Below are positions 24,539 to 57,169 of a stretch of 64,000 bases of DNA, piece by piece; positions within the stretch are counted from its first letter, which is position 1; each line of letters opens with the position of its first letter. The stretch is from an uncultured Thermoplasmata archaeon (lineage in GTDB: Archaea; Thermoplasmatota; DTKX01; GCA-020343715), in assembly GCA_965369625.1 (NCBI GenBank), contig CBDUQW010000003.1, positions 9,883 through 73,882 of the forward strand, read 5' to 3'. Both the position numbers and the translations under genes were made by a program. Under the pieces are notes generated by a model. It worked only from the letters and a program-made list of their open reading frames with translations. It did no database searches and had not been told where the DNA came from.

Positions 24539-25399
24539 CTAGATATCCACGGGAGTGTCGTGCAGACCGAAGCCCATCAGCTTCCTGTCCATCCCGAAGG
24601 CCAAGCCGTACAGCTGCGACAGGTGGAGCACGGGGTACTGCTTCTCCCTTCCAAGGTCCTTCTGTCCCCTGTCATACTGCAGATGACAGAAGGGGCACAC
24701 GTCGAGGATGAGGTCGACCTCCACCTCGTCAAGGTACTTCAGCTTCTCCTCCGTCATCTTCAGGGCGACGTCGGGGGTGTTCGCCCGAACACCTCCACCG
24801 GCCCCACAGCACATCTGCTTGTGGCGATATTCAACCGACTTCGCACCCGTGGCCTCCACCAGGTCCTCCAGGAGGTGGGGGGTCTCCGGGTTGTCCAGGT
24901 TCCTGACCGCACTGGGCTTGAGGAAGTGGCAGCCGTAATGGATGGCGATGTTGAGATGGTCCAGCGAGTGCGTGACCTTCTTCGCTATGGCGTCGGGTCC
25001 AAGGTCCTTATGCAAGACCTCGGCGAAGTGGCGGACCTGGGTCTTGCCCTTGTACTCCTTGCTGCCGGCCTTCTTCAAGATCTTGTTGACCTCATCGCGC
25101 TTCGCATCGTCGTGGTTGAGGACGTGGGCGGCCTCGTCGAGGGAGCCATAGCAGCCGTTGCACACCGTCAGGATGTCCAGCTTGGCCTCTTGCGCGGCCA
25201 CCAGATTATGGGCGGCCAGCGACAGCCAAGTGGGGGAATGGAGGGAACGGGTGACGCCAGGCGCCGGGCAACAGGAGAACTCCTCCACGTCCACAAGTTC
25301 GAAGCCCAGCTCCTTCATGATCTCCCGGGTCGAACTCTCGATGCCGGGATAGCGCATCGGCATGATACAGCCAAGGAAGAACGCGTACTTGGACATCAC
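24539..25399 (-). CDS. hdrB: Heterodisulfide reductase subunit B (two CCG domains)
   Basis: It has FFLGCIMPMRYPGIE, SCCPAPG, VCNGC, MCCGAGGG and VCPFCHLQY, which is the canonical HdrB cysteine pattern. It overlaps hdrC by 4 nt. Confidence 0.92.
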   Translation of the reverse strand: MMSKYAFFLGCIMPMRYPGIESSTREIMKELGFELVDVEEFSCCPAPGVTRSLHSPTWLSLAAHNLVAAQEAKLDILTVCNGCYGSLDEAAHVLNHDDAKRDEVNKILKKAGSKEYKGKTQVRHFAEVLHKDLGPDAIAKKVTHSLDHLNIAIHYGCHFLKPSAVRNLDNPETPHLLEDLVEATGAKSVEYRHKQMCCGAGGGVRANTPDVALKMTEEKLKYLDEVEVDLILDVCPFCHLQYDRGQKDLGREKQYPVLHLSQLYGLAFGMDRKLMGFGLHDTPVDI

Positions 25400-25914
25400 T
25401 TACCCCCCTTCTTAACCAAGTCGAAGAAACCGGTTTCCTTCATTATCTTCAGGACGACCTCCTGGTTCTTCTTGTTGGAAAGTACCGTGGGCGGGGTCTC
25501 GGCCAACCCCAGGGCCTTGCGGGCCTTCATCATGGGCTCCTTGAGCGGGACCATGTGACCCGTCTTTGCCAGCGCCCTTCCGACGCGGATGTGTTGTTCT
25601 TGCATGTATCCCGCCTCCACGGCCATGTTCCGCATGACCATGACTATGTCCGTCACCTCGACCCCTCGCGGGCACCGCTCCTGGCACGTGTAGCACGTGG
25701 TGCACATCCAAAGGTCCTCGGATGCGAGGACCTTGTCAGCGATGCCCAGCTGGGCCCATCGGATGAGCTTCCGGATCCTGAAGGCCGTCTGACGCCCCGA
25801 GGGACAGCTCCCGGTGCAGGTCCCGCACTGGAAGCATCGTAAAAGAGTCGTTCCACCCCGCTCTATGATCTGCTGGGGGAACTTGTTATCAGGTTTGAAT
25901 ACTGCTTCACCCAT
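25396..25914 (-). CDS. hdrC: Heterodisulfide reductase subunit C (2x[4Fe-4S] ferredoxin-like)
   Basis: It has CFQCGTCTGSCPSG and CTTCYTCQERCPRGV. Confidence 0.92.
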   Translation of the reverse strand: MGEAVFKPDNKFPQQIIERGGTTLLRCFQCGTCTGSCPSGRQTAFRIRKLIRWAQLGIADKVLASEDLWMCTTCYTCQERCPRGVEVTDIVMVMRNMAVEAGYMQEQHIRVGRALAKTGHMVPLKEPMMKARKALGLAETPPTVLSNKKNQEVVLKIMKETGFFDLVKKGGK

Positions 25915-27717: not shown

Positions 27718-29727
27718 GTGGTCAGCGCTAGGGTGGTGCAGAGCTTGACGAAGTTAAGGATCGGAGTATACGTTTGCCATTGCGGTCACAACATCGGCGG
27801 TGTCGTCGATTCCCACGGGGTGGCGGAGTACGCGAAAGGCCTGGAAGGGGTTGTCGTTGCAAGGGACAACAAGTACACTTGCTCCGACCGTGGACAGGAC
27901 GAGATCAAGGTCGACATAAAGAAGCACAAGCTGAACAGGGTGGTCGTCGCCTCCTGCTCACCGAACCTCCACGAGAGGACATTCAGGAGGACGGTGGCGG
28001 ATGCCGGGCTCAACCCGTACCTTTTCCAAATGGTCAACATCCGTGAACAGGTCTCGTGGGTCCACGCTGACGATCACGACGCGGCGACCCGGAAGGCCAA
28101 GGACCTTGTCCGTATGGGTGTGGCGAGAGTGAGGTTGCTGGAGCCCCTCAAGGACCGGCGGGTGGAAATGGAGAGGTCGGTGATGGTCGTCGGCGGGGGT
28201 ATCTCGGGTATTGAGGCATCGCTACAGCTGGCGGCGCTGGGCATCAAGAGCTACCTGGTCGAGAAGACCCCAAGCATCGGCGGCCGGATGGCCCAGCTGG
28301 ACAAGACCTTCCCCACGACGGACTGCTCGATATGCATCCTTGCCCCCAAGATGGTGGAGGTGGCCTCCGAACCCAACATCGAACTGCTCACCTACACCGA
28401 GGTCGAGAACATCGAGGGTTACATCGGCAACTTCACCGTCACCCTCAGGAAGAAGGCCCGACACGTCGACCTGGACAAGTGCATCGGGTGCGGATCGTGC
28501 TCGGATGTGTGCCCGGTCGAGGTCCCCTCCGAGTTCGACATGGAGGTCGGCAACCGCAAGGCCGCCTACATACCGTTCCCCCAGGCCGTGCCGATAAAGT
28601 ACACCATAGACGAGGCCAACTGCCTCTACTTCAAGACCGGCAAGTGCCAGTTGTGCGTCGAGGCATGTCCCACCGATGCCATCGAGCACGACACCACCGA
28701 CGAGCTGGTGGACATCAAGGTGGGGTCCATCGTGCTGGCCACCGGTTTCGACCCGTACAAGCCCATGATCTCCGATTACCTGGGCTACGGAGAGTATCCC
28801 AACGTGATCACCGCGATGGAGTTCGAGCGGATCATCAACGCGTCGGGACCCACCAAGGGGCATGTCCTCAGGCCCTCGGACGGGAAGGTCCCCAAGACCT
28901 TCGCCTTCATCCAGTGTGTGGGGTCCCGGAACAGGAAGATCGGAAACGAGTACTGCTCGAACGTGTGCTGTATGTACACGATGAAGAACGCCCAGCTGAT
29001 CAAGGAGCACTACCCCGACGCAGTGGTGACGGTGTACTACATCGACATCCGTGCCCATGGCAAGGGCTTCGAGGAGTACTACCACCGACTCCGTGAGAAC
29101 TACCAGATCGAATACATCCGTGGCAGGCCGGCGAAGGTCTGGCAGAACGAGAGGACCAAGAACATCACCATCCGGGCCGAGGAGACCCTCCTCAACCTGA
29201 TCACCCAGAGGGAGTTCGACCTGGTCATCCTGTCCGTGGGCCTCGTTCCCGCAGAAGGCACCGACCAGCTCGTTAAAATGCTCAACCTGTCCAAGAGCAC
29301 CGACGGGTTCCTCCAGGAGGCACATCCCAAGCTCCGACCGGTGGAGACCACCACGGCAGGCGTCTTCCTAGCGGGGTGCGTCCAGGGACCCAAGGACATC
29401 CCCTCCTGCGTCGCCCAGGCCAGGGCGGCCGCCGCGGCTGCCGCTGGACCCATCCTGAAGGGCGAGTACGCCATCGAACCCCTGGTCGCCCAGGTCGACC
29501 AGGACAAGTGCATGGGCTGCGGCCTGTGCGTCGAAGTGTGCCCCTACGGGGCTCCCAGGCTCGTGGACCAGGAGGTTGGCCAGAAGGCGGAGATCCTTGA
29601 GGTGCTCTGCAGAGGTTGTGGCACGTGCGTGGCGGCATGCCCCTACCACGCCATCACCGCGGAGCAGTTCTCCGACGAACAGCTGGAACATGAGCTGATG
29701 GCCGCGCTCGAAGTGGAGGTGAAGTAG
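27718..29727 (+). CDS. hdrA: Heterodisulfide reductase subunit A, canonical architecture
   Basis: The N-terminal cluster domain is IGVYVCHCGHNIGGVVD ... VVASCSP. The FAD site is VVGGGISGIEASL. The HdrA signature is GGRMAQLDKTFPTTDCSIC. The inserted ferredoxin has CIGCGSCSDVCP and CQLCVEACP. It also has FIQCVGSRN..YCSNVCCMY and a C-terminal ferredoxin (CMGCGLCVEVCP, CRGCGTCVAACP). The exact start is uncertain. Confidence 0.92.
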   Translation: MVSARVVQSLTKLRIGVYVCHCGHNIGGVVDSHGVAEYAKGLEGVVVARDNKYTCSDRGQDEIKVDIKKHKLNRVVVASCSPNLHERTFRRTVADAGLNPYLFQMVNIREQVSWVHADDHDAATRKAKDLVRMGVARVRLLEPLKDRRVEMERSVMVVGGGISGIEASLQLAALGIKSYLVEKTPSIGGRMAQLDKTFPTTDCSICILAPKMVEVASEPNIELLTYTEVENIEGYIGNFTVTLRKKARHVDLDKCIGCGSCSDVCPVEVPSEFDMEVGNRKAAYIPFPQAVPIKYTIDEANCLYFKTGKCQLCVEACPTDAIEHDTTDELVDIKVGSIVLATGFDPYKPMISDYLGYGEYPNVITAMEFERIINASGPTKGHVLRPSDGKVPKTFAFIQCVGSRNRKIGNEYCSNVCCMYTMKNAQLIKEHYPDAVVTVYYIDIRAHGKGFEEYYHRLRENYQIEYIRGRPAKVWQNERTKNITIRAEETLLNLITQREFDLVILSVGLVPAEGTDQLVKMLNLSKSTDGFLQEAHPKLRPVETTTAGVFLAGCVQGPKDIPSCVAQARAAAAAAAGPILKGEYAIEPLVAQVDQDKCMGCGLCVEVCPYGAPRLVDQEVGQKAEILEVLCRGCGTCVAACPYHAITAEQFSDEQLEHELMAALEVEVK

Positions 29728-29728
29728 C

Positions 29729-30316
29729 ATGACCGGTGAGACCGAGCAGACCTTCATCGGAGCCTCCAAGACGACCATCGTCGAGGAGAAGGTCATCCTC
29801 GACGAGGAGTACGACCCGAATTTCGCCGCCGAGATCGTCAAGTACGGTGGGCGCGACGTCAAGACCTGTCACCAGTGCGGGAACTGCACCGGTGTCTGCC
29901 CTTACAGCCTCAAGACCGCCTACAAGACGCGCAACATCATCAAGATGTGCCAGCTGGGCCTCAAGAGCCTGGTGCTCCATACACCCTGGCTTTGTGCCAC
30001 ATGCTACCGTTGCTACGAGCACTGCCCCGAGGACATCAACGCCGCGGAGGTCATGATCGCACTGCGCCACATAGCCATCCGAGACGGGAACATCCCCGAT
30101 TTCATCGTCCGGGTGAGCAAGAACGTCGTCAAGTACGGTCAGAGCATCGCACCATCGCGAGAGGTGGAGGTGCTACGCGAGCAGCTAGAGCTGGGACCCC
30201 TGCCGTACGCCCGACCGAAGCACGCAAAGAACATCACCGAGATCCAGCACATCATAAGGGCTACGGGCTACGACGAGCTGATACACATCAGTGCCAGACC
30301 TGAGGAGGATGAGTGA
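29729..30316 (+). CDS. hdrC: Heterodisulfide reductase subunit C (divergent, 195 aa)
   Basis: It has CHQCGNCTGVCP and CATCYRCYEHCPEDI. It starts 1 nt after the hdrA stop. Confidence 0.88.
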   Translation: MTGETEQTFIGASKTTIVEEKVILDEEYDPNFAAEIVKYGGRDVKTCHQCGNCTGVCPYSLKTAYKTRNIIKMCQLGLKSLVLHTPWLCATCYRCYEHCPEDINAAEVMIALRHIAIRDGNIPDFIVRVSKNVVKYGQSIAPSREVEVLREQLELGPLPYARPKHAKNITEIQHIIRATGYDELIHISARPEEDE

Positions 30317-31241
30317 CATGACCTACGGACTCTTCATGGGATGCCTCATCCCCAACCGTTACCCCGGCATCGAGTGGGCGACCGAGTTCCTCCTCAATAA
30401 AAAGCAGCTCAACGTGCATGCTGACAGGATCGATGACTTCACCTGTTGTCCGGTCCCGGGCATCTTCTACTCCGCGGACAAGGAGACCTGGCTGGCGCTG
30501 GCGGCACGCAACCTCGTGTTGGCCCAGGAGAACGAGAAGGAGATCCTCACCCTGTGCAACGGATGCTACATGTCGCTGCACAAGGCTTCCGAGAAGCTAC
30601 AGGACCCGAAGCAGCGGTCGAGGACGAACAAGGTGCTGAAGGGAGTGGGCAAGCGCTACGTCGGTGAGGAGATCCCCACGGAAGGGCGTGTCAAGCAGTA
30701 CCGGCCCATCCAGGTCAAGCACCTGGTCGAGATCCTCATCCACGACGTGGGCCTCGAGAAGCTGGAGGAGAAGTTGGTCCATCCCCTCACGGGCCTCCGG
30801 GTGGCCGTGCACTACGGTTGCCATTACCTACGCCCCTCCGAGAACCACCAGATCGAGAACCCCAACCGACCCAGGTACATCGACGACATCGTCAAGGCGT
30901 GCGGCGCCACGTCGGTGGATTACGACGAGAAGCTCTCCTGCTGTGGTGCCGGCGGGGGCGTCCGCTCCCATGTCAAGGAGCTGGCCGACGCCCTCACCGA
31001 CGACAAGATAAAGAGCATCACCAAGGCAAGGGCCGACGTCATCGTGACCCCATGTCCCTTCTGCCTGCTGCAGTTCGATACGGCCCAGTCATCGCTTCCA
31101 GGGGTCAACATCCCCGCCATCCACCTCTCGAGCTTCGTGGCCCTCGCCTTGGGAGCCGACCCGCTGTTCCTGGGCTTCGACCTGCACAACATCTCGGTCA
31201 ATCCGCTGCTTCGGAAGCTGCGAAGGGGGGCGATAGCGTGA
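30309..31241 (+). CDS. hdrB: Heterodisulfide reductase subunit B (divergent, with an insertion)
   Basis: ATG 30309 follows GGAGG and overlaps the hdrC stop. It has FMGCLIPNRYPGIE, TCCPVPG, LCNGC, SCCGAGGG and PCPFCLLQF. Confidence 0.88.
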   Translation: MSDMTYGLFMGCLIPNRYPGIEWATEFLLNKKQLNVHADRIDDFTCCPVPGIFYSADKETWLALAARNLVLAQENEKEILTLCNGCYMSLHKASEKLQDPKQRSRTNKVLKGVGKRYVGEEIPTEGRVKQYRPIQVKHLVEILIHDVGLEKLEEKLVHPLTGLRVAVHYGCHYLRPSENHQIENPNRPRYIDDIVKACGATSVDYDEKLSCCGAGGGVRSHVKELADALTDDKIKSITKARADVIVTPCPFCLLQFDTAQSSLPGVNIPAIHLSSFVALALGADPLFLGFDLHNISVNPLLRKLRRGAIA

Positions 31242-31714
31242 CCGGGAAGGCGAAGGAGTCTGGGAAGAAGGAGGCCGCCGCCGTCGAGGGATTCGACCCG
31301 AGGGTGATAATCTTCGCATGCAACTGGTGCTCGTACTCGGGCGCCGACCTTGCAGGCACCTCCCGATACCAGTATGCGCCGAACGTGCGCATCATCCGTG
31401 TCATGTGCTCTGGCCGTGTGGACCCCAGCCTCATCCTGAAGGCGCTGCGGAACGGCGCCGACGGAGTGCTGGTATCGGGCTGCCATCCTGCAGACTGCCA
31501 CTACATCAACGGGAACCAGAAGGCCGAGGTCCGGGTATCCTTCCTCAAGCGCTTCCTTCCCCACGTGGGCATCGACCCCCGGAGGCTCCGCCTGGAGTGG
31601 ATATCCGGGTCGGAGGGCGAGCTGTTCGCCCGGATCGCCACCACCTTCACAGAGGAGATCCGGGAACTCGGACCCAACCCCCTGACCGGGGACGACGTGC
31701 CGGAGGTGAGGTAG
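31238..31714 (+). CDS. mvhD: MvhD-type [2Fe-2S] electron-transfer protein (D0, plain)
   Basis: A GTGA overlap joins it to hdrB. It has ACNWCSYSGADLAG, VMCSGRVDP and GCHPADCHY. The track ORF (from 30818) is a run-on in an alternative frame of hdrB. Confidence 0.88.
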   Translation: MTGKAKESGKKEAAAVEGFDPRVIIFACNWCSYSGADLAGTSRYQYAPNVRIIRVMCSGRVDPSLILKALRNGADGVLVSGCHPADCHYINGNQKAEVRVSFLKRFLPHVGIDPRRLRLEWISGSEGELFARIATTFTEEIRELGPNPLTGDDVPEVR

Positions 31715-46282: not shown

Positions 46283-47140
46283 ATGGACATCGCCTTCTTC
46301 TTAGGATGTATCGCACCCCTTCGGTACCCTGGCATCGAGTCAGCGACCCGGGAGGTCCTCGACAGGCTGGGGGTCTCCATACGTGACCTGGACGGGGCAT
46401 CCTGCTGCCCGGCCCCCGGTGTGACGCGCAGTTTCGATGTCAAGACCTGGGTCACCATGGCAGCCCGCAACATCGCCCTCGCCGAGCGCCAGGGCTTGAA
46501 TATCCTGACCGTCTGCAACGGCTGCTTCGGTTCCCTGTTCGAGGCGGCATACCGGCTGGGGGAGGAACCCGATCTCCTCAGGGAGGTCAACGGCATACTG
46601 GAGGGGCTCAACATGACGGTGACGCCCCACGGCGTCGAGGTCAGGCACTTCGCGGAGTTCCTGGCAAAGGACGTGAACGAGAACACGATCAAGAAGTCGT
46701 TCAAGCGCAAGCTCGACCTGGATGTGGCCGTGCACTACGGCTGCCACTTCCTGAAACCCTCCAAGATAAAGCAGCTCGACGACCCCGAGAGGCCGACCAT
46801 GGTGGACAAGCTGGTGAGGCTCACCGGCGCCCGCAGCCTGGAGTACAGGGAGAAGCAGATGTGCTGCGGGGCCGGCGGCGGCGTGCGCGCGCGCCACCCG
46901 GACACCGCACTGGCCATGACCAAGGACAAGGTGGATATAATCAAGGAGGCGGGAGCCGACTGCATCGTCGACGTGTGCCCCTTCTGCCACCTCCAGTACG
47001 ACAAGGGCCAGAAGGCCCTGGGCAAGGAGTACGACATCCCCGTCCTCCACCTGGCGCAGCTGTACGGCCTGGCGATGGACATCGACCCGAAGCTCCTGGG
47101 CTTCGAGGCCCACGCGGTGCCGGTGAACCTGGAAATCTGA
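46283..47140 (+). CDS. hdrB: Heterodisulfide reductase subunit B
   Basis: It has FFLGCIAPLRYPGIE, SCCPAPG, VCNGC, MCCGAGGG and VCPFCHLQY. Confidence 0.92.
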   Translation: MDIAFFLGCIAPLRYPGIESATREVLDRLGVSIRDLDGASCCPAPGVTRSFDVKTWVTMAARNIALAERQGLNILTVCNGCFGSLFEAAYRLGEEPDLLREVNGILEGLNMTVTPHGVEVRHFAEFLAKDVNENTIKKSFKRKLDLDVAVHYGCHFLKPSKIKQLDDPERPTMVDKLVRLTGARSLEYREKQMCCGAGGGVRARHPDTALAMTKDKVDIIKEAGADCIVDVCPFCHLQYDKGQKALGKEYDIPVLHLAQLYGLAMDIDPKLLGFEAHAVPVNLEI

Positions 47141-47276
47141 GCAGAGCCATGGCGCCACCGACCCGACCCCTCGCATCGGTCCGGATAAGCTCACCGTGGC
47201 CGGAGTAGACCAGCAGCTTCATGGGAGGAAGGTCCTGACCCCCCCGAAGGCCCTCCCCACGAAAGGCCTCGTCCAT

Positions 47277-48621: not shown

Positions 48622-49449
48622 GTGATGACTGTGATGAAAACAGAAACGAAGACCTCTGTCGCGGGGAGGCCGTGGGAACCCAGCATCCTGATGCTCTGCT
48701 GTAAGAGGGCCGCTGCCGCGGATGCTCGTCTGGCAAGGATCTCCCGTATCCAGATGATCATGGACCCCAGGATCCTGCACCTCCCTTGCTCCGGTAATAT
48801 GGACCCAGCGTTGTGTGTACAGTTGCTCAGGGAAGGAATGGACGGTGTACTGGTGCTCGGGTGCCATCCCGGTGACTGCTGCAATTCCAACGGAAACCAC
48901 TTCGCTGAGATGAAGATGTCCTGGACCCGGCTGATCCTCAAGAAGACCGAGCTGGATGATGAGCGGCTCCGCATCGATTGGATGTCGGCCTCCGAGGACC
49001 AGCTCTTCACAGGTATCGTCTCGGACTTCATGGATAGGTTGCGGGCGTTTGGCCCCAACCCCGTCAATGACCCCGACAGGGTACAGATGCGCGAGCAGCT
49101 GGAAGCGGCGATCCTAACGTTGAACGACCTCCGCATCCGTGCCCTCATGGACAAGGTCCGCACGTTAGAGGACCAGGGGAACGTCTACGGTGAGGCCGTT
49201 GACCGGGAAGAGCTCAACGCGGCGGTGGTGTCTGCTTTGGAGTCCGAGTACCTGAGAAAGTCCGTCCTGGTCATGCTCAAGGGCAACGACATGACCGTCC
49301 CGCAGCTTGCGCGGAGGCTGAGCCTCAGCCCCGAGACCATCATGACACAGGTGGTCCGACTGAGGCAGAGGAACCTACTGGACATCTCGAGGATCGATGG
49401 TCTTGATCCATCCTACAAGATATCTGGAGGTGTAATCGATGACCGCTAA
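48622..49449 (+). CDS. MvhD-like domain with a degenerate cysteine motif, fused to the X extension (D4-X)
   Basis: It is a clear paralogue of D1-X (CVQLLREGMDGVLVLGCHPGDC; VPQLARRLSLSPETIMTQVVRLRQRNLL). However, CNWCSYAGADLAG is replaced by CKRAAAADARLAR and DCHY by DCCN. Confidence 0.8.
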   Translation: MMTVMKTETKTSVAGRPWEPSILMLCCKRAAAADARLARISRIQMIMDPRILHLPCSGNMDPALCVQLLREGMDGVLVLGCHPGDCCNSNGNHFAEMKMSWTRLILKKTELDDERLRIDWMSASEDQLFTGIVSDFMDRLRAFGPNPVNDPDRVQMREQLEAAILTLNDLRIRALMDKVRTLEDQGNVYGEAVDREELNAAVVSALESEYLRKSVLVMLKGNDMTVPQLARRLSLSPETIMTQVVRLRQRNLLDISRIDGLDPSYKISGGVIDDR

Positions 49450-52400: not shown

Positions 52401-52468
52401 GGATGAGCCACTTCACAGAGGACCAGATCCTGGCGACGATGAGATCATTACTGCTGGAGGCCATCTGA
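49439..52468 (+). CDS. Long two-module HdrA-like flavoprotein L4 (1009 aa), the closest paralogue of L2
   Basis: It has the same motif set as the other long copies. Long stretches are near-identical to L2, including the perfect 362-bp block. The C-terminal ferredoxin is divergent (CRGCGRCREACV, CKGCGTCAVTCP). Confidence 0.88.
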   Translation: MTAKGKTGAVLVVGGGISGMQSALDLGDAGFRVYLVERKPTIGGAMAQLDKTFPTNDCSMCIMAPKLVAVDKHPNIEIISNAEVEKVTGRPGRFLVSLIKHPRYVDEDKCTGCGQCSMKCPVEAIDMYNEGLMTRAAIYVDYPQAVPLKFRIDKERCIGCGICEGECLANAIDFNQKEELMKVRVGSIILSPGFDEFDPTALREYGYGQYPNVVSSIEFERMLSASGPFRGVVMRPSDGKVPEKVAFIQCVGSRDEHIGHNYCSSVCCMHAIKEAMIAQEHTEGLSSHIFFMDIRAFGKEFDDYVTRARDEFGIGITRGNRVADITQNPKTKDLRVRYIEGGDIKYERFNLVVLSVGLHAPRTAKDLSAAFGIDLNRYNFAETRTFSPLETNVPGIFVSGAFSGPKDIPTTVAEASGAAAKAAADIHEARNTLLTEVQLPPERDVMGEEPRIGVFVCHCGINIGGVVDVPDVVEYAKSLPGVVYAEHNLYTCSADTQERIKERIVKLDLNRVVVASCTPRTHEPLFRSTVREAGLNPYLFEMANIRDQCSWVHMHEHEAASLKAKDLVRMAVSRACLLEPLQRAVIPVTQRALVIGGGVSGMTAALDIADQGFTTYLVEREKKLGGIARHLHTTLQGDDVQTELERMISKVWAHPNIQVIIGSEIEDVKGSVGNFSTKLRGNEETLEHGVILVTTGGMEYKPEEHLYGKDDRVVTQLEFEEELVNADPEDLPSTAVFIQCVGCRNEERSYCSRVCCGTSVKQALLLKKERPDAQVFVLYRDLRTYAFKEDAYKEAAEAGVVFIRFDEDREPKVSKDKSKDGPLEVMVYEELLEENLRIEADRLILAAAILPPEDNERLAQLLKLPLSKDGFFLEAHMKLRPLDFATDGVFLAGLAHSPKYLDECIAQASGAAARALCILSRPTFEAEGIVASVETALCRGCGRCREACVYGAIDIEEVEPEVFISRVNEALCKGCGTCAVTCPSKAIRMSHFTEDQILATMRSLLLEAI
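50153..50514 (+). repeat. 362-bp block 100% identical to 36248-36609
   Basis: Base-by-base comparison; see the partner feature at 36248-36609. Confidence 0.9.
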
Positions 52469-54108
52469 TGTCCGCGTTTGAACCTGAGAGCCTGGCCCTG
52501 TGCTGCAACTGGTGCGGCTATGCGGGGGCGGACCTCGCCGGGGTCAGCAGGATCCAATACCCGCCCAACATCAGGATCATGAGGATCATGTGCTCGGGAA
52601 GGGTGGAGATCAACCACCTGTTGACAGCGCTCATGTTCGGGGCGGACGGCGTCATGGTGGTGTGCTGCCACCCCGGGGACTGCCACTACGTCTCTGGCAA
52701 CGAGAGGGCGGAGAAGAACTTCGAAACGACCAAGGAGCTGCTCCGATACCTTGACATGGAGGACCGGGTCCGAATGGAGCCCATCTCGGCTGCCGAGGGG
52801 ACCAAGTTCGGCAAGGTGGTCTCCGAGTTCACCGAGGACCTGAGGAAGCTGGGCCCCAACCCCATGAAGAAGGTCCGACACCGCTTCTCTCCGGACCGAA
52901 AAGGCATCACCCAAGAGGAGTTCCAAGGGAACATGGCAGATATTGTGGAAATCACGGGGGTGTACGACTGCCTTGAATGCGGCAAGTGCGCCGCAAGCTG
53001 CCCCAACACCAGGATGGACCACAATTACTCCCCGATGCTCACGGTCGAAAGGGTCCATAGGGGGCTGATCGACGAGATAGCTGAGGACCCGGGCATCTGG
53101 ACCTGCATGACATGCGGGACCTGCAGTTACCGCTGTCCCTCCGGTGTTGACTACACGGGTTTCATAAGACGCGTGAGGGCGCTCAAGGTGGGGACCGGGG
53201 GAAGGTGCTCCCACGGGGGCGTCTTCACCACGCTGGCGAAACTGATGTCGAACCCCGAGGTCATCCAGAAGGACCGGCTCCGATGGGTGTCGGACGACCT
53301 CTCGGTCTCGAAGAAGGGCGACCTGGTGTACTTCACAGGCTGCCTGCCCTACTTCGACCCCATCTTCAGGGACATCAACGTCCATTGCACCGAGATCGCG
53401 AGGAGCACGGTGCGAATACTGAACAAGGCGGGCATCACGCCCGCTGTCATGGAGGACGAGCGGTGCTGCGGCCATGACCTCCTCTGGAGCGGGGAGGACG
53501 AGGGCATGGTCCAGGACCTGGCACGGATCAATCTCGGGGCCCTGAAGGAAGCCGGTGCCAAGAGGGTGGTCATGAGCTGTCCAGAATGCTACAGGACCTT
53601 CGTGAAGGACTATCCCGAGTACGCAAGCGGGAGCGCCATGGACTTCGAGGTGCTGCACACCTCCGAGCTATTCGCGGAGCTGATCGAGGAGGGGAAGCTG
53701 GAGTTCGACGGCAAGGCCGGGGACATCGTGCCTATCACCTACCAGGACCCGTGCAGGCTGGGGCGCCATCTGGGTGTGTTCGACCAGCCACGGACCGTCC
53801 TGGAGAGCCTCCCCGGCGTTGAGCTCCGTGAGATGGAGGAAAGCCGCGGAAACGCGATCTGCTGCGGGACCTCGGCATGGATGAACTGCGGCACCTTCTC
53901 GAAGCGCGTACAGATGGATCGGTTACGGGAGGCGGCCGCGACGGACGCAGGGACCCTTGTCACCGCATGTCCCAAGTGCATGATCCACTTCAACTGCACA
54001 CTCTACGAGCCCGCCGACCCGGACCTGCCGACCAAGCCGGACATCACGGTCAGGGACCTCTCAACGTTCATGGCCGAGGCGATGGGCCTCAAGGGGGAAT
54101 CCGGATGA
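52468..54108 (+). CDS. Triple fusion of MvhD domain, HdrC-like 2x[4Fe-4S] domain and HdrB-like double CCG domain (MvhD-HdrD-like, D5)
   Basis: A TGATG overlap joins it to L4. The MvhD part has CCNWCGYAGADLAG, IMCSGRVE and CCHPGDCHY. The ferredoxin part has CLECGKCAASCP and CMTCGTCSYRCP. CCG domain 1 has FTGCLPYF..ERCCGHD..MSCPECY and CCG domain 2 has QDPCRLG..AICCGTS..TACPKCM. The track ORF start at 52147 is a run-on. Confidence 0.85.
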   Translation: MSAFEPESLALCCNWCGYAGADLAGVSRIQYPPNIRIMRIMCSGRVEINHLLTALMFGADGVMVVCCHPGDCHYVSGNERAEKNFETTKELLRYLDMEDRVRMEPISAAEGTKFGKVVSEFTEDLRKLGPNPMKKVRHRFSPDRKGITQEEFQGNMADIVEITGVYDCLECGKCAASCPNTRMDHNYSPMLTVERVHRGLIDEIAEDPGIWTCMTCGTCSYRCPSGVDYTGFIRRVRALKVGTGGRCSHGGVFTTLAKLMSNPEVIQKDRLRWVSDDLSVSKKGDLVYFTGCLPYFDPIFRDINVHCTEIARSTVRILNKAGITPAVMEDERCCGHDLLWSGEDEGMVQDLARINLGALKEAGAKRVVMSCPECYRTFVKDYPEYASGSAMDFEVLHTSELFAELIEEGKLEFDGKAGDIVPITYQDPCRLGRHLGVFDQPRTVLESLPGVELREMEESRGNAICCGTSAWMNCGTFSKRVQMDRLREAAATDAGTLVTACPKCMIHFNCTLYEPADPDLPTKPDITVRDLSTFMAEAMGLKGESG

Positions 54109-55436
54109 ACAACGTTGACGATGACGTGCTGATAATCGGCGCTGGGATCGCCGGCATCCAGGCCTCGTTGGACCTGGCCACGGCTGGGATCCAGGTCAGA
54201 TTGGTGGAGAAGGAGCCCAGCATCGGAGGCCGCATGGCTCAACTCGACAAGACGTTCCCCACCAACGACTGTTCCATCTGCATCCTGGCGCCCAAGATGC
54301 TCGAGTGCTTCGACCACGAGAACATCGACGTGATGACCTACTCCGAGGTGAAATCAGTGAGGGGCGAGGTCGGGAACTTCACCGTGGAGGTGCTGAAGAA
54401 GCCCAGATACGTGGACGCCGAGAGGTGCACAGGCTGCGGTGCGTGCATGGAGAAGTGTCCAACGAAGGTGCCGGACGAGTTCGACATGAACCTGCGCATG
54501 CGGAAGGCCATATACTTTCCCTTCGCCCAGGCAGTGCCCCGGATAGCTACCATCGACGAGGAGAACTGCCTCTACTTCAAGACGGGCAAGTGCAAGATAT
54601 GCGAGAAGGTCTGCCAGGCCAAGGCCATCGACCACGATATGAAGCCCGAGGTGGTGACCCTCAAGGTGGGCGTCATCATCGTTGCCTCGGGGTTCGAGAC
54701 CTACATGCCTCACGAGCTGGAGGAGTACGGGTACGACCGGTTCGCCAACGTGGTCACGGCGATGGAGTTCGAGCGGATCATCAATGCGGCAGGTCCCACG
54801 GGCGGGCACCTGCAGCGGCTCTCGGAGGACCACGAAAGGCCCAGGAGGCTAGCGTTCATCCAGTGCGTCGGCTCACGCGATACCCGTGTCAAGAGGCCCT
54901 ACTGCTGCGCTGTGTGCTGCATGTACTCCACCAAGGAGGCGATGCTTGCGAGGGAGCATTACTCTGATATAGAGTCCACCATTTTCTACACGGACATCAG
55001 GGCATTCGGGAAGGGGTTCACGGAGTACATCGAACGCGCCAAGAGGGAGTACGGGGTCAAGTACATCCGTGCCAAGCCTGGCGAGATCAGGGAGGAAAGG
55101 GACACCAAGAACCTGGCCATCTACTACCGGGACCCGGACACGCAGCACATCGAGGCCTTCGAGGCGGATTTCGTGGTGCTCGCCACCGCCCTAATACCCC
55201 GTAAGGGCGTGGAGGACCTCGCCAAGGTCCTGGGCGTGGAGCTGGACGAGTTCAACTTCTTCAGATCGCCGGACCCGGACGTCTTTCCGATGGAGACCAC
55301 GGTGAGAGGGATCTTCTCGGCGGGGTACTGTCAGAAACCGATGGACATACCCGAGGCGGTGGCCGAGGGCAGCGCGGCGGCCGCAAGGGCGATCGAGACG
55401 ATGAGCATGCAGGTGAACGGGGGTGAGACCGCATGA
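54105..55436 (+). CDS. Split long HdrA, part a: FAD module A with inserted ferredoxin (L5a, 443 aa)
   Basis: An ATGA overlap joins it to D5. It has IIGAGIAGIQASL, GGRMAQLDKTFPTNDCSIC, CTGCGACMEKCP, CKICEKVCQ and FIQCVGSRD..YCCAVCCMY. It ends where module A ends in L1-L4. Confidence 0.88.
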   Translation: MNNVDDDVLIIGAGIAGIQASLDLATAGIQVRLVEKEPSIGGRMAQLDKTFPTNDCSICILAPKMLECFDHENIDVMTYSEVKSVRGEVGNFTVEVLKKPRYVDAERCTGCGACMEKCPTKVPDEFDMNLRMRKAIYFPFAQAVPRIATIDEENCLYFKTGKCKICEKVCQAKAIDHDMKPEVVTLKVGVIIVASGFETYMPHELEEYGYDRFANVVTAMEFERIINAAGPTGGHLQRLSEDHERPRRLAFIQCVGSRDTRVKRPYCCAVCCMYSTKEAMLAREHYSDIESTIFYTDIRAFGKGFTEYIERAKREYGVKYIRAKPGEIREERDTKNLAIYYRDPDTQHIEAFEADFVVLATALIPRKGVEDLAKVLGVELDEFNFFRSPDPDVFPMETTVRGIFSAGYCQKPMDIPEAVAEGSAAAARAIETMSMQVNGGETA

Positions 55437-57169
55437 GCGATGCGGGGTCGGCCGATCCAGGGTCCGAACCGAGGATAGGCGTGTTCGTCTGCCATTGCGG
55501 GACGAACATCGGGGGCGTCGTCGACGTCCCAGCGGTGGTGGAGTACACAAAAGGCCTACAACACGTCGTACACGCGGAGGGTAACCTCTATACCTGTGCT
55601 TCGGACGGCATCGCCGCCATCCAACATGCGATCAAGGAGCACGACCTCAACAGGGTCGTCGTGGCGTCGTGCACGCCACGGACCCACTCGACGCTGTTCA
55701 TGAGGGCGTGCGCCGATGCGGGCCTCAACCCCTACCTCTTCGAGTTCGTCAACATCCGGGACCAGTGCTCCTGGGTCCACATGCGCGAACCGGAGAAGGC
55801 CACCGAGAAGGCCAAGGACCTGGTGAGGATGGGGGTGGCCAAGGCGGCTCTGCTGGAGCCCCTGGAGAAGATAGAGATCTCCATGGAGCCGGTGACGTTG
55901 GTGATCGGCGGGGGCGTGGCAGGGCTCAAGGCAGCAAGCGTCATCGGGAACAGCGGGTTCGAGGTCTACCTGGTGGAGAAGGAGGCCGAGCTCGGTGGGA
56001 TGGTCAGGAGCTTCTATCGCGTCTACCCGTCCAACAGGTTGGCCTCGGAATTCCTCGAACCCATCATCAGGTCCGTGGAGGAGAACGACAACGTCCATGT
56101 CCTCACCTCCACCATGGTCAAGGATGTCAAGGGTTACGTGGGCAACTTCGAGGTGACGGTCGCTACATCGGGCAATCGAGGTGAAACGACGTTCAAGGTC
56201 GGCACGATCATCGTCGCCACGGGCGCTGAGGTGCTCAGACCCGACGGCCTATACGGTTACGGGGAGTACACCAAGGTGATGAACCAGATGGAGCTCGACC
56301 ATTACATCAGCAAGGGCGACATCCAGGACCTGCAAAGCGTTGTGATGATCCAGTGCTGTGGTACCAGGGACGAGAATAGGCTGACCTATTGCTCCAGGGT
56401 CTGCTGTATGGCCGCGCTCAAGAACGCGTTGGCGATCAAGGAGATGGACCCGACCTCGGACGTGACCATACTTTACAGGGATGTCCAGACCCAAGGGATC
56501 CGTTACGAGGCGCTCTACAGGGCAGCGAGGCAGGCCAGGGTACGGTTCATCAGATACAGTCCGGCAAGGGAACCCAAGGTGGAGGCAGTGACATCCCCCG
56601 ACGGCATGTTGAGGGTCGATTTCTTCGATGAGCTGATAGGTCGCCAGTCCAGCATCGAGTGCGATCGCGTCGTGCTGTCCTCTCCCCTCGTCCCGCACCA
56701 CGACAGTCTGGACCTGTCGAAGATCCTGCGGGTGCCGAGGGGCAAGGACAAGTTCTTCTTCGAGGCGCACGTGAAGCTGAGGCCTGTAGACTTCGCCACG
56801 GACGGTATATTCCTCTGCGGCACCGCGCATGGGCCAAAGGACATCACCGACTCCATCATCCAGGCACTGGGTGCGGCGGGGCGTGCCCTTGCTCTCCTCA
56901 GGAACGAACGGATAGAGGGCGAACCCATCGTGTCCATCGTAGACGAGAGCCTCTGCACCGGTTGTGGCACGTGCATCGAACTATGCCCCTATGGAGCGAT
57001 AGAGCGGACAGAGGATGACAAGGCGAGGGTGGTCGAGGCGCTCTGCAAGGGGTGCGGCGTCTGCACCTCCAGCTGCCCAGAGTTCGCGATCAACCTCCAG
57101 GGCTTCACCAACGAACAGATCCTTGCCCAGATGCGTTCCGCGCTGCAGGATGTCCCAGAAGCGAATTAG
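55433..57169 (+). CDS. Split long HdrA, part b: cluster domain, FAD module B and C-terminal ferredoxin (L5b, 578 aa)
   Basis: An ATGA overlap joins it to L5a. It has IGVFVCHCGTNIGGVVD..VVASCTPRTHSTLF..NIRDQCSW, VIGGGVAGLKAAS, MIQCCGTRD..YCSRVCCM, CTGCGTCIELCP and CKGCGVCTSSCP. Confidence 0.88.
   Translation: MSDAGSADPGSEPRIGVFVCHCGTNIGGVVDVPAVVEYTKGLQHVVHAEGNLYTCASDGIAAIQHAIKEHDLNRVVVASCTPRTHSTLFMRACADAGLNPYLFEFVNIRDQCSWVHMREPEKATEKAKDLVRMGVAKAALLEPLEKIEISMEPVTLVIGGGVAGLKAASVIGNSGFEVYLVEKEAELGGMVRSFYRVYPSNRLASEFLEPIIRSVEENDNVHVLTSTMVKDVKGYVGNFEVTVATSGNRGETTFKVGTIIVATGAEVLRPDGLYGYGEYTKVMNQMELDHYISKGDIQDLQSVVMIQCCGTRDENRLTYCSRVCCMAALKNALAIKEMDPTSDVTILYRDVQTQGIRYEALYRAARQARVRFIRYSPAREPKVEAVTSPDGMLRVDFFDELIGRQSSIECDRVVLSSPLVPHHDSLDLSKILRVPRGKDKFFFEAHVKLRPVDFATDGIFLCGTAHGPKDITDSIIQALGAAGRALALLRNERIEGEPIVSIVDESLCTGCGTCIELCPYGAIERTEDDKARVVEALCKGCGVCTSSCPEFAINLQGFTNEQILAQMRSALQDVPEAN

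Follow-up and report, generated by a model that had tools for sequence, protein, structure and literature searches.

Gene content and layout of the region

The window analysed here is a stretch of 64,000 nucleotides from an uncultured Thermoplasmata archaeon (contig CBDUQW010000003.1); all coordinates are positions in this window, and the gene set was obtained by ORF calling and Pfam searches. Between 24539 and 57169 these searches identify one canonical HdrA, four fused double HdrAs (~1000 aa), one split double HdrA, six FlpD/MvhD domains, three hdrCB pairs, one MvhD-HdrCB fusion and one mvhGA; 11 GxGxxG/FAD modules are counted by motif, and four proteins carry two CCG domains apiece. The [NiFe] large subunit occurs in single copy, its top PDB match being MvhA (5odc_F, E=3e-116). 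The counts of a first-pass annotation (11 FAD modules, six MvhD domains, four HdrB-type proteins, one hydrogenase) are therefore reproduced by ORF calling, Pfam and motifs. Four of its five long HdrAs are fused and the fifth is split in two (L5a, L5b), as the annotation itself had said, while its single supercluster survives as a gene set but is divided into two runs, 27718-47140 and 48634-57169, the second on an 11.3 kb segment. All genes of the region are intact, Pfam E-values range from 1e-20 to 1e-55 and every cluster-binding Cys is conserved; together with the dN/dS values of 0.07-0.24 reported below, these E-values and ligands argue that the pattern is not due to chance.

On the reverse strand, hdrB1 (24539..25399, 286 aa; HdrB-type, Pfam CCG x2, E=1.9e-38, 56% identical to hdrB3) overlaps by 4 nt with hdrC1 (25396..25914, 172 aa; HdrC-type, two [4Fe-4S] clusters, Pfam Fer4_8/Fer4_17). 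The first run consists of 15 tightly packed forward-strand genes, with gaps or overlaps of at most ~28 nt, the largest before hdrC3, and on the basis of this spacing it is most likely a single operon. It begins with the canonical hdrA (27718..29727, 669 aa), whose four domains align end to end with PDB 5odc_A (E=3e-263) and which has the full set of Cys ligands, Cys194/197 included, followed by hdrC2 (29729..30316, 195 aa; Fer4_9/Fer4_8), hdrB2 (30309..31241, 310 aa; CCG x2, E=1.3e-32) and D0, a plain MvhD (31238..31714, 158 aa; FlpD, E=1.2e-54). Fused double HdrAs and MvhD proteins then alternate: L1 (31715..34720, 1001 aa, module A then module B; dN/dS 0.14), D1X (34717..35532, 271 aa; FlpD E=3e-46, weak HTH matches, X-domain alignment A1), L2 (35534..38554, 1006 aa), D2X (38556..39341, 261 aa; FlpD E=3e-50), L3 (39338..42385, 1015 aa; dN/dS 0.11) and, by the hydrogenase genes, the plain MvhD D3 (42385..42828, 147 aa; FlpD E=1e-53). 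The run ends with the stand-alone X3 (42821..43216, 131 aa; dN/dS 0.17), the hydrogenase small subunit mvhG (43221..44228, 335 aa; Oxidored_q6) and large subunit mvhA (44229..45740, 503 aa; NiFeSe_Hases), hdrC3 (45769..46278, 169 aa; Fer4_8) and hdrB3 (46283..47140, 285 aa; CCG x2, E=1.9e-38).

The second run comprises five forward-strand genes: D4X (48634..49449, 271 aa; FlpD E=1.9e-31, weaker than for the other five MvhD domains), the fused double HdrA L4 (49439..52468, 1009 aa; 80% identical to L2), the MvhD-HdrC-HdrB triple fusion D5CB (52468..54108, 546 aa; FlpD E=4.9e-49, Fer4_8, CCG x2 E=3.4e-24), and the stand-alone modules A and B of the split protein, L5a (54105..55436, 443 aa; aligned to canonical HdrA residues 151-562) and L5b (55433..57169, 578 aa; residues 14-243 and 333-665). 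Divergent from D4X, across a 280-bp AT-rich spacer, a reverse-strand HTH protein (47277..48353, 358 aa; weak HTH_36/HTH_20/HTH_11 matches and a Sta1-family match below cut-off) is a candidate regulator of the second operon. Hydrogenase maturation genes are found at 58328..63979 (HycI-type protease, HypE, HypD, HypA and HypF; Pfam HycI, AIRS/AIRS_C, HypD, HypA, HypF_C).

Architecture of the double HdrAs and their adaptors

Module boundaries were drawn by BLASTP against the canonical HdrA of the window, with Cys197 mapped through 5odc_A; L1-L4 were assigned from these matches and from their Cys ligands (for L3 and L4 also from Pfam). The long HdrAs each unite the two halves of an asymmetric HdrA dimer in a single chain. 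In module A the HA4 cluster and the Cys194/Cys197 pair belong to a TrxR-FAD domain, and a two-cluster ferredoxin is inserted; module B contains an N-terminal cluster domain, a second TrxR-FAD domain with HA4, and a C-terminal two-cluster ferredoxin. The Cys ligand patterns of the two modules are fully complementary in 5/5 long HdrAs. Each chain thus has 2 FAD and the Cys ligands of 7 [4Fe-4S] clusters, but a single complete low-potential exit and a single MvhD docking site. Both modules show the motifs of FAD binding and of the flavin environment, and in L2 the residues C58/C61, K273 and K761 are invariant. In the split protein, Cys194/197 and the inserted ferredoxin are in L5a, while L5b has the N-domain and the C-terminal ferredoxin and lacks Cys197. 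The AF2 model of L2 (pTM 0.81) has HdrA chains as its top structural matches, and the best 120 of its more than 8000 homologues are ~1000 aa long. L1 is 55-57% identical to L2-L4, and L2 is 64% identical to L3; an NJ tree separates two old double-HdrA types that match the position in the conserved unit described below, and groups L5a and L5b with the split 'type 1' double HdrAs found in other genomes. The proposal that the long proteins are two-module flavoproteins of HdrA type is thus borne out by BLASTP modules, Cys ligands and FAD motifs. A defined non-Hdr function did not emerge: the NCBIfam search gave no family above cut-off, and the nearest characterised relative, BamE, is itself of the bifurcating HdrA type.

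D1X, D2X and D4X carry an extra C-terminal domain X of ~120 aa, made up of a helical linker with a winged helix resembling that of ArsR. The fourth X of the region, X3, follows D3 as a separate ORF and aligns with the X of the other three; since the same split is found in a related contig (L082, X as a separate 128-aa ORF), it is not a frameshift artefact, and X is commonly encoded on its own, as a protein of 110-130 aa, in the family. In its AF2 model (pLDDT 90, pTM 0.87), D2X has an MvhD fold (matching 5odc_D with TMt 0.9) that continues through a helical linker into a winged helix of ArsR/SmtB type; the Foldseek matches of X to ArsR-family proteins are weak (E ~0.01, TM 0.55-0.6). D4X has degenerate motifs (CCKRAAAAD in place of CCNWCSYAGAD, GDCCNS in place of GDCHY), with the four invariant Cys retained.

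Conserved gene order in other genomes

Synteny was studied in 81 loci from other species, containing 34 D-X genes, 30 of them evaluable upstream and 29 downstream; the hosts are archaeal (Thermoplasmata, Methanomassiliicoccales, Bathyarchaeia, Asgard) and bacterial (Chloroflexota, Clostridia, Desulfobacterota, WOR-3). The gene directly upstream of D-X encodes an HdrA module in 28/30 cases, and the gene directly downstream a double HdrA in 29/29. Plain MvhD, instead, lies downstream of its HdrA in 55/68 cases; the gene after it is mvhG or one not recognised as Hdr/Mvh, and seldom an HdrA. A-B-D triple fusions with MvhD at the C-terminal end also occur and tie MvhD to the upstream HdrA, as also in the available excerpts of PMC11237513; X is found downstream of such a fusion as well (locus L025). 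Given the 55/68 count, the fusions and the two D-X counts, the HdrA to which MvhD belongs is most likely the upstream one, and X correlates with the downstream one. The recurring unit proposed earlier, MvhD(-X) followed by a long HdrA, covers only half of this arrangement, applying to D-X and rarely to plain MvhD, while the MvhD(-X) proteins stand as dedicated adaptors. The conserved unit is CB, A+B, D-X, A-B, D, (mvhGA), tandemly amplified in the window, where two exceptions to the order are seen: plain D0 precedes L1, and X3 precedes mvhG rather than an HdrA. Closed genomes of Thermoplasmata and Methanomassiliicoccales (L001, L002) have similar triple arrays, and D-X Hdr clusters elsewhere have MetF, an FdhA-like molybdopterin protein or an FrhB-like protein as neighbours.

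Selection and origin

In a relative with 88% nucleotide identity, 14 shared genes could be compared, and dN/dS is 0.07-0.24 in 14/14, including L1-L3, D1X, D2X, D3 and X3. These values indicate purifying selection on the comparable copies, which do not behave as pseudogene-like paralogues. The second run sits on an 11.3 kb segment missing from this relative, and the L2 versus L4 comparison gives a dN/dS of 0.34, above the orthologue pairs. We envisage that the A-B/D-X part of an ancestral unit CB, A+B, D-X, A-B, D, (mvhGA) was amplified in tandem, and that a second, circularly shifted copy (D4X-L4-D5CB-L5a-L5b) would have been gained on the 11.3 kb segment.

Comparison with known Hdr systems

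The hdrA-hdrC2-hdrB2-D0 and mvhGA genes have close homologues in MvhADG-HdrABC of methanogens (PDB 5odc, 7bkb, 8rvu, 9sw2; E-values of 3e-263 for HdrA, 3e-116 for MvhA and 2.6e-51 for MvhD), with the same cofactor ligands. The methanogen enzyme, however, pairs two identical HdrA chains symmetrically, each served by one MvhD and one hydrogenase, whereas the window has five asymmetric fused or split pseudo-dimers per single hydrogenase.

According to the available excerpts of Chadwick et al. 2022 (PMC9012536), ANME archaea possess a fused HdrA3/4, tandem HdrA5/6 and 12/13, and more HdrA than HdrBC copies; the logic of a heterodimer in one chain is laid out there, and varied input modules are proposed for the paralogues. 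As in the window, the N-domain is in one half and Cys197 in the other, and L5a/L5b resemble the tandem pairs, but the fused ANME proteins have the N-domain half first, while those of the window have the Cys197 half first, like BamE and the Sporomusa ovata HdrA. The same excerpts make no mention of an MvhD-winged-helix adaptor. Excerpts of two catalogue-level reports describe, for Asgard/TACK archaea, duplicated-HdrA fusions in up to six copies per genome, some fused C-terminally to MvhD (Padalko et al. 2024, PMC11237513), and, for Asgard, an hdrA-frhD (hdrA-mvhD) adjacency that always holds (PMC11227280). Several double HdrAs per genome adjoining mvhD are thus shared with the window; the D-X adaptor, the positional double-HdrA types and the conserved unit are not described in these excerpts. 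[quoted passage not shown] It is without the inserted ferredoxin (five clusters versus seven), has a plain MvhD (14.4 kDa) for an adaptor, and is a single copy linked to MetVF.

The closest parallel is BamBCDEFGHI of Geobacter metallireducens, known from a 2026 cryo-EM preprint (bioRxiv 10.64898/2026.04.10.717634). There BamE is a fused HdrA dimer whose N-terminal TrxR1 domain holds the bifurcating FAD (Cys59-Cys62 pair, Lys280, Gln768); it has seven [4Fe-4S] clusters, and its C-terminal ferredoxin is the entry. HdrB and HdrC are fused in BamD, and BamF is an MvhD lengthened by >100 residues, among them a winged helix by which the input module BamI is docked. The likeness was judged by architecture, residue spacing and protein size rather than by alignment: L2 C58/C61, K273 and K761 are spaced as BamE C59/C62, K280 and Q768, with 488 residues from Lys to Lys in L2 and from Lys to Gln in BamE, and the Bam gene order D-E-F corresponds to CB, A-B, D-X. 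The differences are that D-X is followed here by another double HdrA and in Bam by bamG, that module B has Lys where BamE has Gln, that Sec19 of BamF corresponds to a Cys in the adaptor, and that the unit recurs three to five times. Genes for BamB/C (tungsten AOR) and BamGHI (NuoEFG/HydABC-like) were found neither in the window nor in the bacterial D-X loci checked. With these precedents in BamD/E/F, fused and tandem HdrAs (excerpts of PMC9012536) and hdrA-mvhD adjacency (excerpts of PMC11227280), the array, whose earlier description the first-pass annotation had left open, cannot be called undescribed.

Discussion

The region is a modular Hdr/Mvh-type flavin-based electron-bifurcation system, built of blocks common to MvhADG-HdrABC of methanogens and BamDEF of class II benzoyl-CoA reductase. 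The explanation that we consider best, with a probability of about one half, is that D-X proteins chain several double HdrAs into one assembly with the single hydrogenase. By reference to the BamE and HdrA structures, the bifurcating flavin would be that of module A, receiving electrons from the MvhD [2Fe-2S] cluster and the C-terminal ferredoxin of module B; one electron would pass through HA4 to an HdrC/HdrB-type site, and the other would reach ferredoxin or a bound partner by way of the N-domain cluster and the inserted ferredoxin. The MvhD encoded just downstream would serve as adaptor of each long HdrA, and X would tether the double HdrA encoded directly downstream, as the BamF winged helix clamps BamI; this docking is proposed from gene order and the BamF-BamI analogy, BamI being a different kind of partner. 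L1-D1X-L2-D2X-L3-D3/X3-MvhGA might then form one linked multi-HdrA assembly, fed by the hydrogenase (or, in the reverse direction, vented by it) and discharging to HdrBC-type sites. The ratio of four HdrB-type sites to six HdrA-dimer equivalents, which leaves some modules without an assigned high-potential exit, counts against such an assembly. The Lys characteristic of bifurcating flavins is retained in module B, BamE having Gln at that place, and the picture of a structural second FAD in BamE might therefore not transfer to the long HdrAs.

It is also possible, though we would give it only tentative credence, that each long HdrA with its MvhD(-X) is an independent bifurcating complex with its own donors and acceptors (disulfides, F420, formate or MetF-like proteins encoded elsewhere, for example), X conferring specificity by recruiting some partner that is not the adjacent HdrA, and the gene clustering merely reflecting tandem duplication. 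The old divergence of the paralogues noted above would fit subfunctionalisation, and this reading agrees with the varied modules adjoining D-X clusters elsewhere, with the varied inputs proposed for ANME paralogues in the excerpts of PMC9012536, and with a second operon that has its own AT-rich upstream spacer and an adjoining regulator. It leaves unexplained, however, why a double HdrA directly follows D-X without exception, unlike plain MvhD; genes for alternative donors or acceptors are absent from the two operons of the window, and the tight junctions from L1 to hdrB3 suggest joint, stoichiometric production.

That the D-X proteins are redox-sensing transcription factors, with a [2Fe-2S] MvhD sensor and a DNA-binding winged helix autoregulating the hdr operon, appears improbable. 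X has weak Pfam matches to HTH_20, HTH_5, MarR_2 and HTH_38 and a fold like the ArsR/SmtB repressors NolR, HlyU, CzrA and BigR, and some source annotations read 'FrhD/predicted transcriptional regulator'; yet three to four copies per operon wedged between hdrA genes would be atypical of a regulator, BamF is the same kind of fusion and acts as a structural adaptor within an enzyme complex, AF2 packs X onto the MvhD domain as a single body, and X also occurs downstream of A-B-D fusions. Even harder to credit is that recent tandem duplication and insertion left mostly superfluous, decaying copies: the absence of the second operon from the close relative, the loss of several near-invariant MvhD residues in D4X and the raised L2/L4 dN/dS point in that direction, but no ORF is broken and no cluster ligand has been lost, the orthologues of L1-L3, D1X, D2X, D3 and X3 are constrained, and comparable triple arrays persist in closed genomes.

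The individual parts of this system are all known, and no published description of the D-X/double-HdrA syntax was found; the novelty is the strict gene-order syntax of D-X between double HdrAs, not the parts. Under the chained-assembly reading, the modules would be wired in series, and the placement of D-X between double HdrAs suggests a physical chain of several electron-bifurcating modules.

Gene content of the region

The gene inventory drawn up in the first-pass annotation for positions 24539-57169, in which paralogous HdrA and MvhD modules surround a single [NiFe] hydrogenase, was matched almost gene for gene by the ORF listing, the translations and the Pfam scans. The minus strand carries hdrB1 (24539-25399) and hdrC1 (25396-25914), both identified from the ORF listing and Pfam. 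A first plus-strand run of 15 genes (27718-47140), in which neighbouring genes overlap or lie no more than ~28 nt apart, opens with the canonical hdrA (27718-29727, 669 aa), followed by hdrC2, hdrB2 and a gene for a plain MvhD (D0, 158 aa). The long HdrAs and their adaptors come next, in the order L1 (1001 aa), D1X (271 aa), L2 (1006 aa), D2X (261 aa) and L3 (1015 aa); then a second plain MvhD (D3, 147 aa) and the small protein X3 (131 aa), whose ORFs overlap by 8 nt (42385-43216); and finally mvhG, mvhA, hdrC3 and hdrB3, with which the run closes at 47140. A divergently oriented gene for an HTH protein (47277-48353, minus strand) lies between this run and a second one, and is separated by an AT-rich spacer of 280 bp from D4X (48634-49449), the first of five plus-strand genes that continue with L4 (1009 aa), the MvhD-HdrC-HdrB fusion D5CB (546 aa), L5a (443 aa) and L5b (578 aa), ending at 57169. 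Directly after L5b the minus strand encodes a TauE/SafE-family anion permease, or 'sulfite exporter' (57333-58088; Pfam E=4e-25), and the hydrogenase maturation genes HycI, HypE, HypD, HypA and HypF are found downstream of the second run. Thus mvhA, mvhG, mvhD, hdrA, hdrB (with 2 CCG domains) and hdrC are all present and clustered, constituting the MvhADG-HdrABC set of a group 3c [NiFe] hydrogenase system; the nearest match to MvhA is its counterpart in the solved Mvh-Hdr complex (5odc_F, E=3e-116).

The G+C content of the window is ~62%, and scans of it with Rfam and for tRNA gave no matches. Three very large ORFs of 1478, 1672 and 2371 aa occupy the upstream positions 466-18220: those of 1478 and 1672 aa contain Glucodextran_B repeats and, taken together, beta-helix and Ig-like domains, and that of 2371 aa has an AglB/STT3 oligosaccharyltransferase N-terminus fused to long CarboxypepD_reg and prealbumin-like repeats. 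A stand-alone thioredoxin-reductase-like flavoprotein (10043-10975, plus strand; Pyr_redox_2, E=2.7e-48) is encoded between these giant surface-protein genes. The presence of AglB/STT3 and PurP among the upstream genes identifies the host as an archaeon. A DUF749 protein gene (24198-24527, minus strand) is directly downstream of hdrB1, while between hdrC1 and hdrA are an ORF resembling, by eye, a CBS-pair protein (26149-26601, plus strand) and a gene for a LysR-type HTH protein (26628-27443, minus strand; Pfam HTH_1, E=1.7e-11), both of which are possible regulators of the divergent hdr genes.

Architecture of the long HdrAs

In a canonical (Methanothermococcus-type) HdrA a single chain holds an N-terminal cluster domain, a TrxR-FAD domain with Cys197 and HA4, and an inserted and a C-terminal ferredoxin, each with 2x[4Fe-4S]. 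The product of 27718-29727 is the sole HdrA of the window with this full set: it aligns end to end with the HdrA chain of the solved complex (5odc_A, E=3e-263), with all the Cys columns present. This chain served as the BLASTP reference for the module boundaries of the long proteins, which comprise four fused double HdrAs (L1-L4) and a split one (L5a plus L5b). Module A (~residues 1-415) corresponds to canonical residues 151-565, and module B (~residues 451-1000) to canonical residues 14-244 plus 333-665. When all the modules were aligned with MAFFT, the Cys ligands of A and B turned out to be perfectly complementary in L1-L4 and in the split pair. Module A contains a DCSxC pair, in which the 5odc_A alignment equates the second Cys with Methanothermococcus Cys197, together with the ligands of the inserted ferredoxin (eight Cys) and of HA4 (four Cys), but neither an N-domain nor a C-terminal ferredoxin. 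In module B the N-domain Cys, HA4 and all eight Cys for a C-terminal ferredoxin are present, and Cys197 and the inserted ferredoxin are missing. Neither module of L1-L5 alone contains the canonical four-domain set, which is complete only as the sum of A and B; from this content it follows that each long chain has 2 FAD and ligands for 7 [4Fe-4S] clusters, with one N-domain cluster, one low-potential exit and one C-terminal ferredoxin entry.

Both modules keep the GxGxxG motif along with the two residues, Methanothermococcus E356 and K409, that PMC9430772 takes as the signature of bifurcating HdrA flavins; only L5b has Asp in place of Glu. An AF2 model of L2, calculated from a 36-sequence alignment, has a pTM of 0.81 and finds HdrA chains as its top structural matches. 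C58/C61, K273 and K761 of L2 are invariant, the module-B Lys (K761) being conserved in at least 90% of the 36 family members. An assignment of the complete bifurcation site to module B was rejected, as in BamE, a subunit of the class II benzoyl-CoA reductase of Geobacter metallireducens, it is the N-terminal TrxR, the counterpart of module A, that is described as the site of both the Cys pair and the bifurcating FAD.

The MvhD adaptors and domain X

Pfam FlpD recognises each of the six MvhD domains (E=1e-31 to 1e-55), and C15, C44, C69 and C74 of the domain are invariant across 40 sequences. The adaptors D1X, D2X and D4X carry ~120 extra C-terminal residues (domain X), for a total of 261-271 aa versus 147-158 aa for plain MvhD, and alignment with these extensions identifies X3 as domain X in a separate ORF. 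In the AF2 model of D2X (pLDDT 90, pTM 0.87) the MvhD fold (5odc_D, TMt 0.9) is followed by a three-helix linker and a winged helix: a single alpha/beta domain plus helices, with the helices at 143-207 and the winged helix at 215-256. The winged helix bears a weak Foldseek resemblance to the ArsR/SmtB proteins NolR, HlyU, CzrA, SmtB and BigR (TMt 0.55-0.60, E ~0.01), and every match of X to the HTH families of Pfam is under the gathering score.

A word-index protein search with X alone, which needs shared 5-mers, returned only 2 matches; a profile searched exhaustively against 1.84 billion representative proteins recovered only 299 clusters with X at E<=0.001. Most of these matches are either ~255-270 aa long, with X behind an N-terminal stretch of MvhD length, or stand-alone proteins of 110-130 aa, the latter found inside hdr operons. 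Full-length MvhD-X proteins (D-X) have thousands of relatives, named in their sources 'hydrogenase iron-sulfur subunit' or 'FrhD/predicted transcriptional regulator'. No NCBIfam family reached its cut-off for the long HdrAs, D-X, X3 or D5CB; the sole match to D2X in the plasmid collection was a plain MvhD; and sequence and fold searches of the PDB copies used here for a solved double HdrA or extended MvhD returned only HdrA chains of ~650 aa and MvhD chains of ~140 aa.

D4X is an outlier, in that it has lost several MvhD residues conserved in at least 90% of the family (as an example, CCKRAAAAD replaces CCNWCSYAGAD, and GDCCNS replaces GDCHY), while keeping the four invariant Cys. Among the residues lost is a Cys (C18 in D2X), replaced by Ala in D4X, which is the equivalent, by position only, of Sec19 in BamF, the adaptor of the benzoyl-CoA reductase. 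A redox-active thiol has been proposed for MvhD at this Cys position.

Gene order in other genomes

More than 8000 homologues of L2 are found at E<1e-50; the top 120 of these are nearly all ~1000 aa long, 58-94% identical and known by generic names only, and their named sources are Thermoplasmata, Methanomassiliicoccales, Bathyarchaeia and Freyarchaeota MAGs. A look-up for a protein identical to L2 gave no record, and the closest homologues of known origin, from Thermoplasmata and Methanomassiliicoccales MAGs, place the host only roughly within the archaea. Current names in these genomes are limited to 'HdrA family protein' or 'hydrogenase iron-sulfur subunit'. A closed Thermoplasmata genome (locus L001, CP070726.1) contains a comparable array with three D-X genes. 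It also has three ORFs of ~100 aa without Pfam match adjoining the D-X and long hdrA genes (5598-5900, 9693-10004 and 13015-13308), two of them between a D-X gene and the next long hdrA and one just past a long hdrA, for which the window has no counterpart.

Scanning the D-X alignment against one genome per GTDB species produced 80 loci, with a best D-X identity of 55%, so that the genome of the window is not one of these representatives. Full-length D-X occurs in Methanomassiliicoccales, Thermoplasmata, Bathyarchaeia, Thermoproteota and Promethearchaeia/Hermodarchaeota among the archaea, and in Chloroflexota, Clostridia, Desulfobacterota, Syntrophorhabdus and WOR-3 among the bacteria. We annotated the loci with our own ORF and BLASTP scheme and then counted the neighbours of 34 D-X genes. 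An HdrA module (B or A-B) is directly upstream of D-X in 28 of 30 evaluable cases, and a double HdrA is directly downstream in all 29 that could be evaluated. In 55 of 68 cases the gene before a plain MvhD is of the HdrA type; the gene after it is mvhG in 14, no recognised Hdr/Mvh gene in 40, and HdrA in only 7. The window has its own exceptions to this syntax: the plain D0 is followed by L1, and X3 by mvhG rather than by a double HdrA.

The recurrent unit has the order CB (or hdrC plus hdrB), A+B, D-X, A-B, D, (hdrCB), (mvhGA), where CB stands for HdrC and HdrB, and triple fusions of A, B and D (~1160-1230 aa) occur in Asgard and other loci. In a NJ tree the double HdrAs fall into two types. 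Type 1, which includes L5a plus L5b, is usually split, lies upstream of D-X and often follows CB; type 2 is fused, lies downstream of D-X, and includes L1-L4 as well as the amplified copies of L001 and of a second locus, L002. The second operon of the window (DX, AB, D·CB, A, B) has the recurrent unit in circularly shifted order, as can be seen by comparison with locus L007 (AB, D, CB, A, B, DX, AB, D, mvhGA). In two bacterial loci, L027 and L029, some of the double HdrAs upstream of D-X are ~1470-1510 aa long, near the length of Moorella HdrA, which has an NAD(P)H-binding GltD insertion; a MetF gene is near the D-X locus of L027.

Selection and an 11.3 kb indel

A JGI metagenome contig (L082) is colinear with positions 28571-47136 at 88% nucleotide identity, with identical gene order down to the separate X3 ORF. 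JGI 3300041086 also contains a close relative. Nei-Gojobori dN/dS values for the 14 genes common to the two sequences are 0.07-0.24, and thus all 14, including L1-L3, D1X, D2X, D3 and X3, are under purifying selection. A frameshift artefact as the origin of the D3/X3 split was ruled out, because the split recurs in this independent relative and X3 is under purifying selection.

L082 runs directly from hdrB3 to HycI, and positions 47137-58473 of the window are therefore an 11.3 kb indel, which contains the genes for the HTH regulator, D4X, L4, D5CB, L5a, L5b and the TauE/SafE permease. It is either a recent insertion in the window or a deletion in L082. The permease inside it may be a hint that the second operon has to do with sulfur compounds. 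L2 and L4 share 80% identity (dN/dS 0.34). The dS of the D1X/D4X pair (1.04) is much larger than that of their respective neighbours L2 and L4 (0.40), which points to gene conversion of L4 or else to different histories of D4X and L4.

Comparison with known systems

The first-pass annotation had read the array as an expanded family of bifurcation modules with dedicated adaptor proteins. The observation itself stands, and the interpretation is supported in part. Components of these types, and their occurrence in many copies, have been described before, and the array is therefore not a new kind of system. Chadwick et al. (PMC9012536) described HdrAs >1000 aa and tandem HdrAs in ANME, noted the complementarity of N-domain and Cys197, and proposed heterodimers or self-heterodimers; by their description the fused HdrA3/4 of ANME have the N-domain half first and the Cys197 half second, whereas L1-L4 have the opposite order. 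Padalko et al. (PMC11237513) report fusions of duplicated HdrAs in Asgard/TACK archaea, 17 of 54 of which are further fused to MvhD, and according to PMC11227280 hdrA is always adjacent to frhD/mvhD in Asgard archaea. The HdrA of Sporomusa ovata (PMC9430772) has the A-B order of the window, but is without the inserted ferredoxin.

The closest likeness is to the class II benzoyl-CoA reductase, whose cryo-EM structure has recently been reported in a preprint (PDB 29QY/29RC; bioRxiv 10.64898/2026.04.10.717634). There, BamE is described as 'a fused HdrA dimer', with the bifurcating FAD in the N-terminal TrxR1 (Lys280), a Cys59-Cys62 pair, and a second, non-bifurcating FAD beside Gln768; cluster E3 comes from the N-domain, E5/E6 from the inserted ferredoxin, and E1/E2 from the C-terminal ferredoxin, which is the entry. 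BamD is an HdrBC fusion, and BamF, an MvhD adaptor that exceeds the usual length by >100 aa, touches BamI of the input module with its winged helix. Judged by this description, the long HdrAs resemble BamE in having two TrxR-FADs, with the Cys-pair/inserted-ferredoxin half first and the N-domain/C-terminal-ferredoxin half second; the spacing from Lys to Lys in L2 (K273, K761) and from Lys to Gln in BamE is 488 residues in both. D1X, D2X and D4X likewise resemble the described BamF in joining an MvhD domain with the conserved Cys set to a C-terminal winged-helix extension of >100 aa, and the bam gene order D-E-F equals CB, A-B, D-X. There are also differences. At the second flavin module B of L1-L4 and L5b has Lys where BamE has Gln768; BamF has Sec19 next to its [2Fe-2S] cluster where the window adaptors have Cys, or Ala in D4X, an equivalence of position and not of alignment; and two Rossmann-fold domains are described for BamF, taken here from the text and not from coordinates, as against the one alpha/beta domain plus helices of the D2X model. 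Finally, BamB/C and BamGHI belong to the Bam system, while no AOR or NuoEF-like genes, the Bam-type neighbours, were found in the window or in the bacterial D-X loci checked.

A literature search of limited coverage found no paper that ties Bam subunits to archaeal arrays or describes the D-X syntax. What is new here is the link, proposed by analogy, of widespread archaeal and bacterial genes to BamD/E/F, together with the two positional types of double HdrA and the strict position of the winged-helix adaptor between double HdrAs. With these elements, the 'excess of HdrA genes' already on record leads to a model of coupled bifurcation modules that can be tested.

Possible coupling of bifurcation modules

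Going by the structures of HdrA and BamE, module A would house the flavin at which bifurcation takes place. Electrons would enter through the MvhD [2Fe-2S] cluster and the C-terminal ferredoxin of module B; the high-potential electron would leave through HA4 to an HdrC/B-type partner, and the low-potential one by way of the cluster in the N-domain and those of the inserted ferredoxin. Taken with the analogy to BamF, synteny and the A-B-D fusions further suggest that the MvhD domain works for the HdrA encoded upstream, while X is predicted to dock on and grip the double HdrA encoded downstream. If MvhD serves the upstream HdrA and X holds the downstream one, then L1-D1X-L2-D2X-L3-D3/X3-MvhGA would constitute a physically linked multi-HdrA assembly on one hydrogenase; this is our main reading, at about even odds. 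Six HdrA-dimer equivalents are encoded in the window, versus only four HdrB-type sites. A bolder reading, to which we assign a probability of about 0.2, is that the D-X adaptors wire several bifurcating HdrAs in series (H2 -> MvhAG -> L3 -> L2 -> L1), with HdrBC-type sites taking the high-potential electrons, and that this system is widespread.

Alternatively, each long HdrA may form an independent isoenzyme complex with its MvhD or MvhD-X, which would fit both how far the paralogues have diverged and how varied the neighbours of D-X are in other genomes; this is a serious possibility, although we hold it at well below even odds, and it leaves unexplained why a double HdrA is downstream of D-X in every evaluable case. 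The ArsR-like fold of the winged helix could instead indicate that D-X is a redox-sensing regulator. Such a role agrees poorly with the copy number and position of the D-X genes and with the precedent of BamF, and we regard it as improbable. Least probable of all is that the array represents decaying redundancy, a view that both the dN/dS values and the intactness of the ligands contradict.

Were the wiring in series correct, it would amount to a bifurcation cascade, or 'bifurcating wire', by which potentials below those of one bifurcation step could be reached; in reverse, several weak donors could be confurcated onto one hydrogenase. Such a system would be widespread, occurring in Thermoplasmatota, Bathyarchaeia and Asgard archaea as well as in several phyla of bacteria, and the coupling of two modules recently described in benzoyl-CoA reductase would become one case of a general principle.

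Hdr-type electron bifurcation has a central place in the energy conservation of methanogens, and probably in that of those Asgard, Bathyarchaeia and Thermoplasmatota lineages from which no heterodisulfide is known. For the many double HdrAs without an explained role in these lineages, the D-X syntax offers a concrete hypothesis, namely that they are physically coupled modules. If this is refuted, the arrays are batteries of isoenzymes, and the present analysis still helps the annotation of these genomes; if it is confirmed, the principle of 'coupled bifurcation modules' would reach from one specialised bacterial enzyme to a widespread archaeal and bacterial system.
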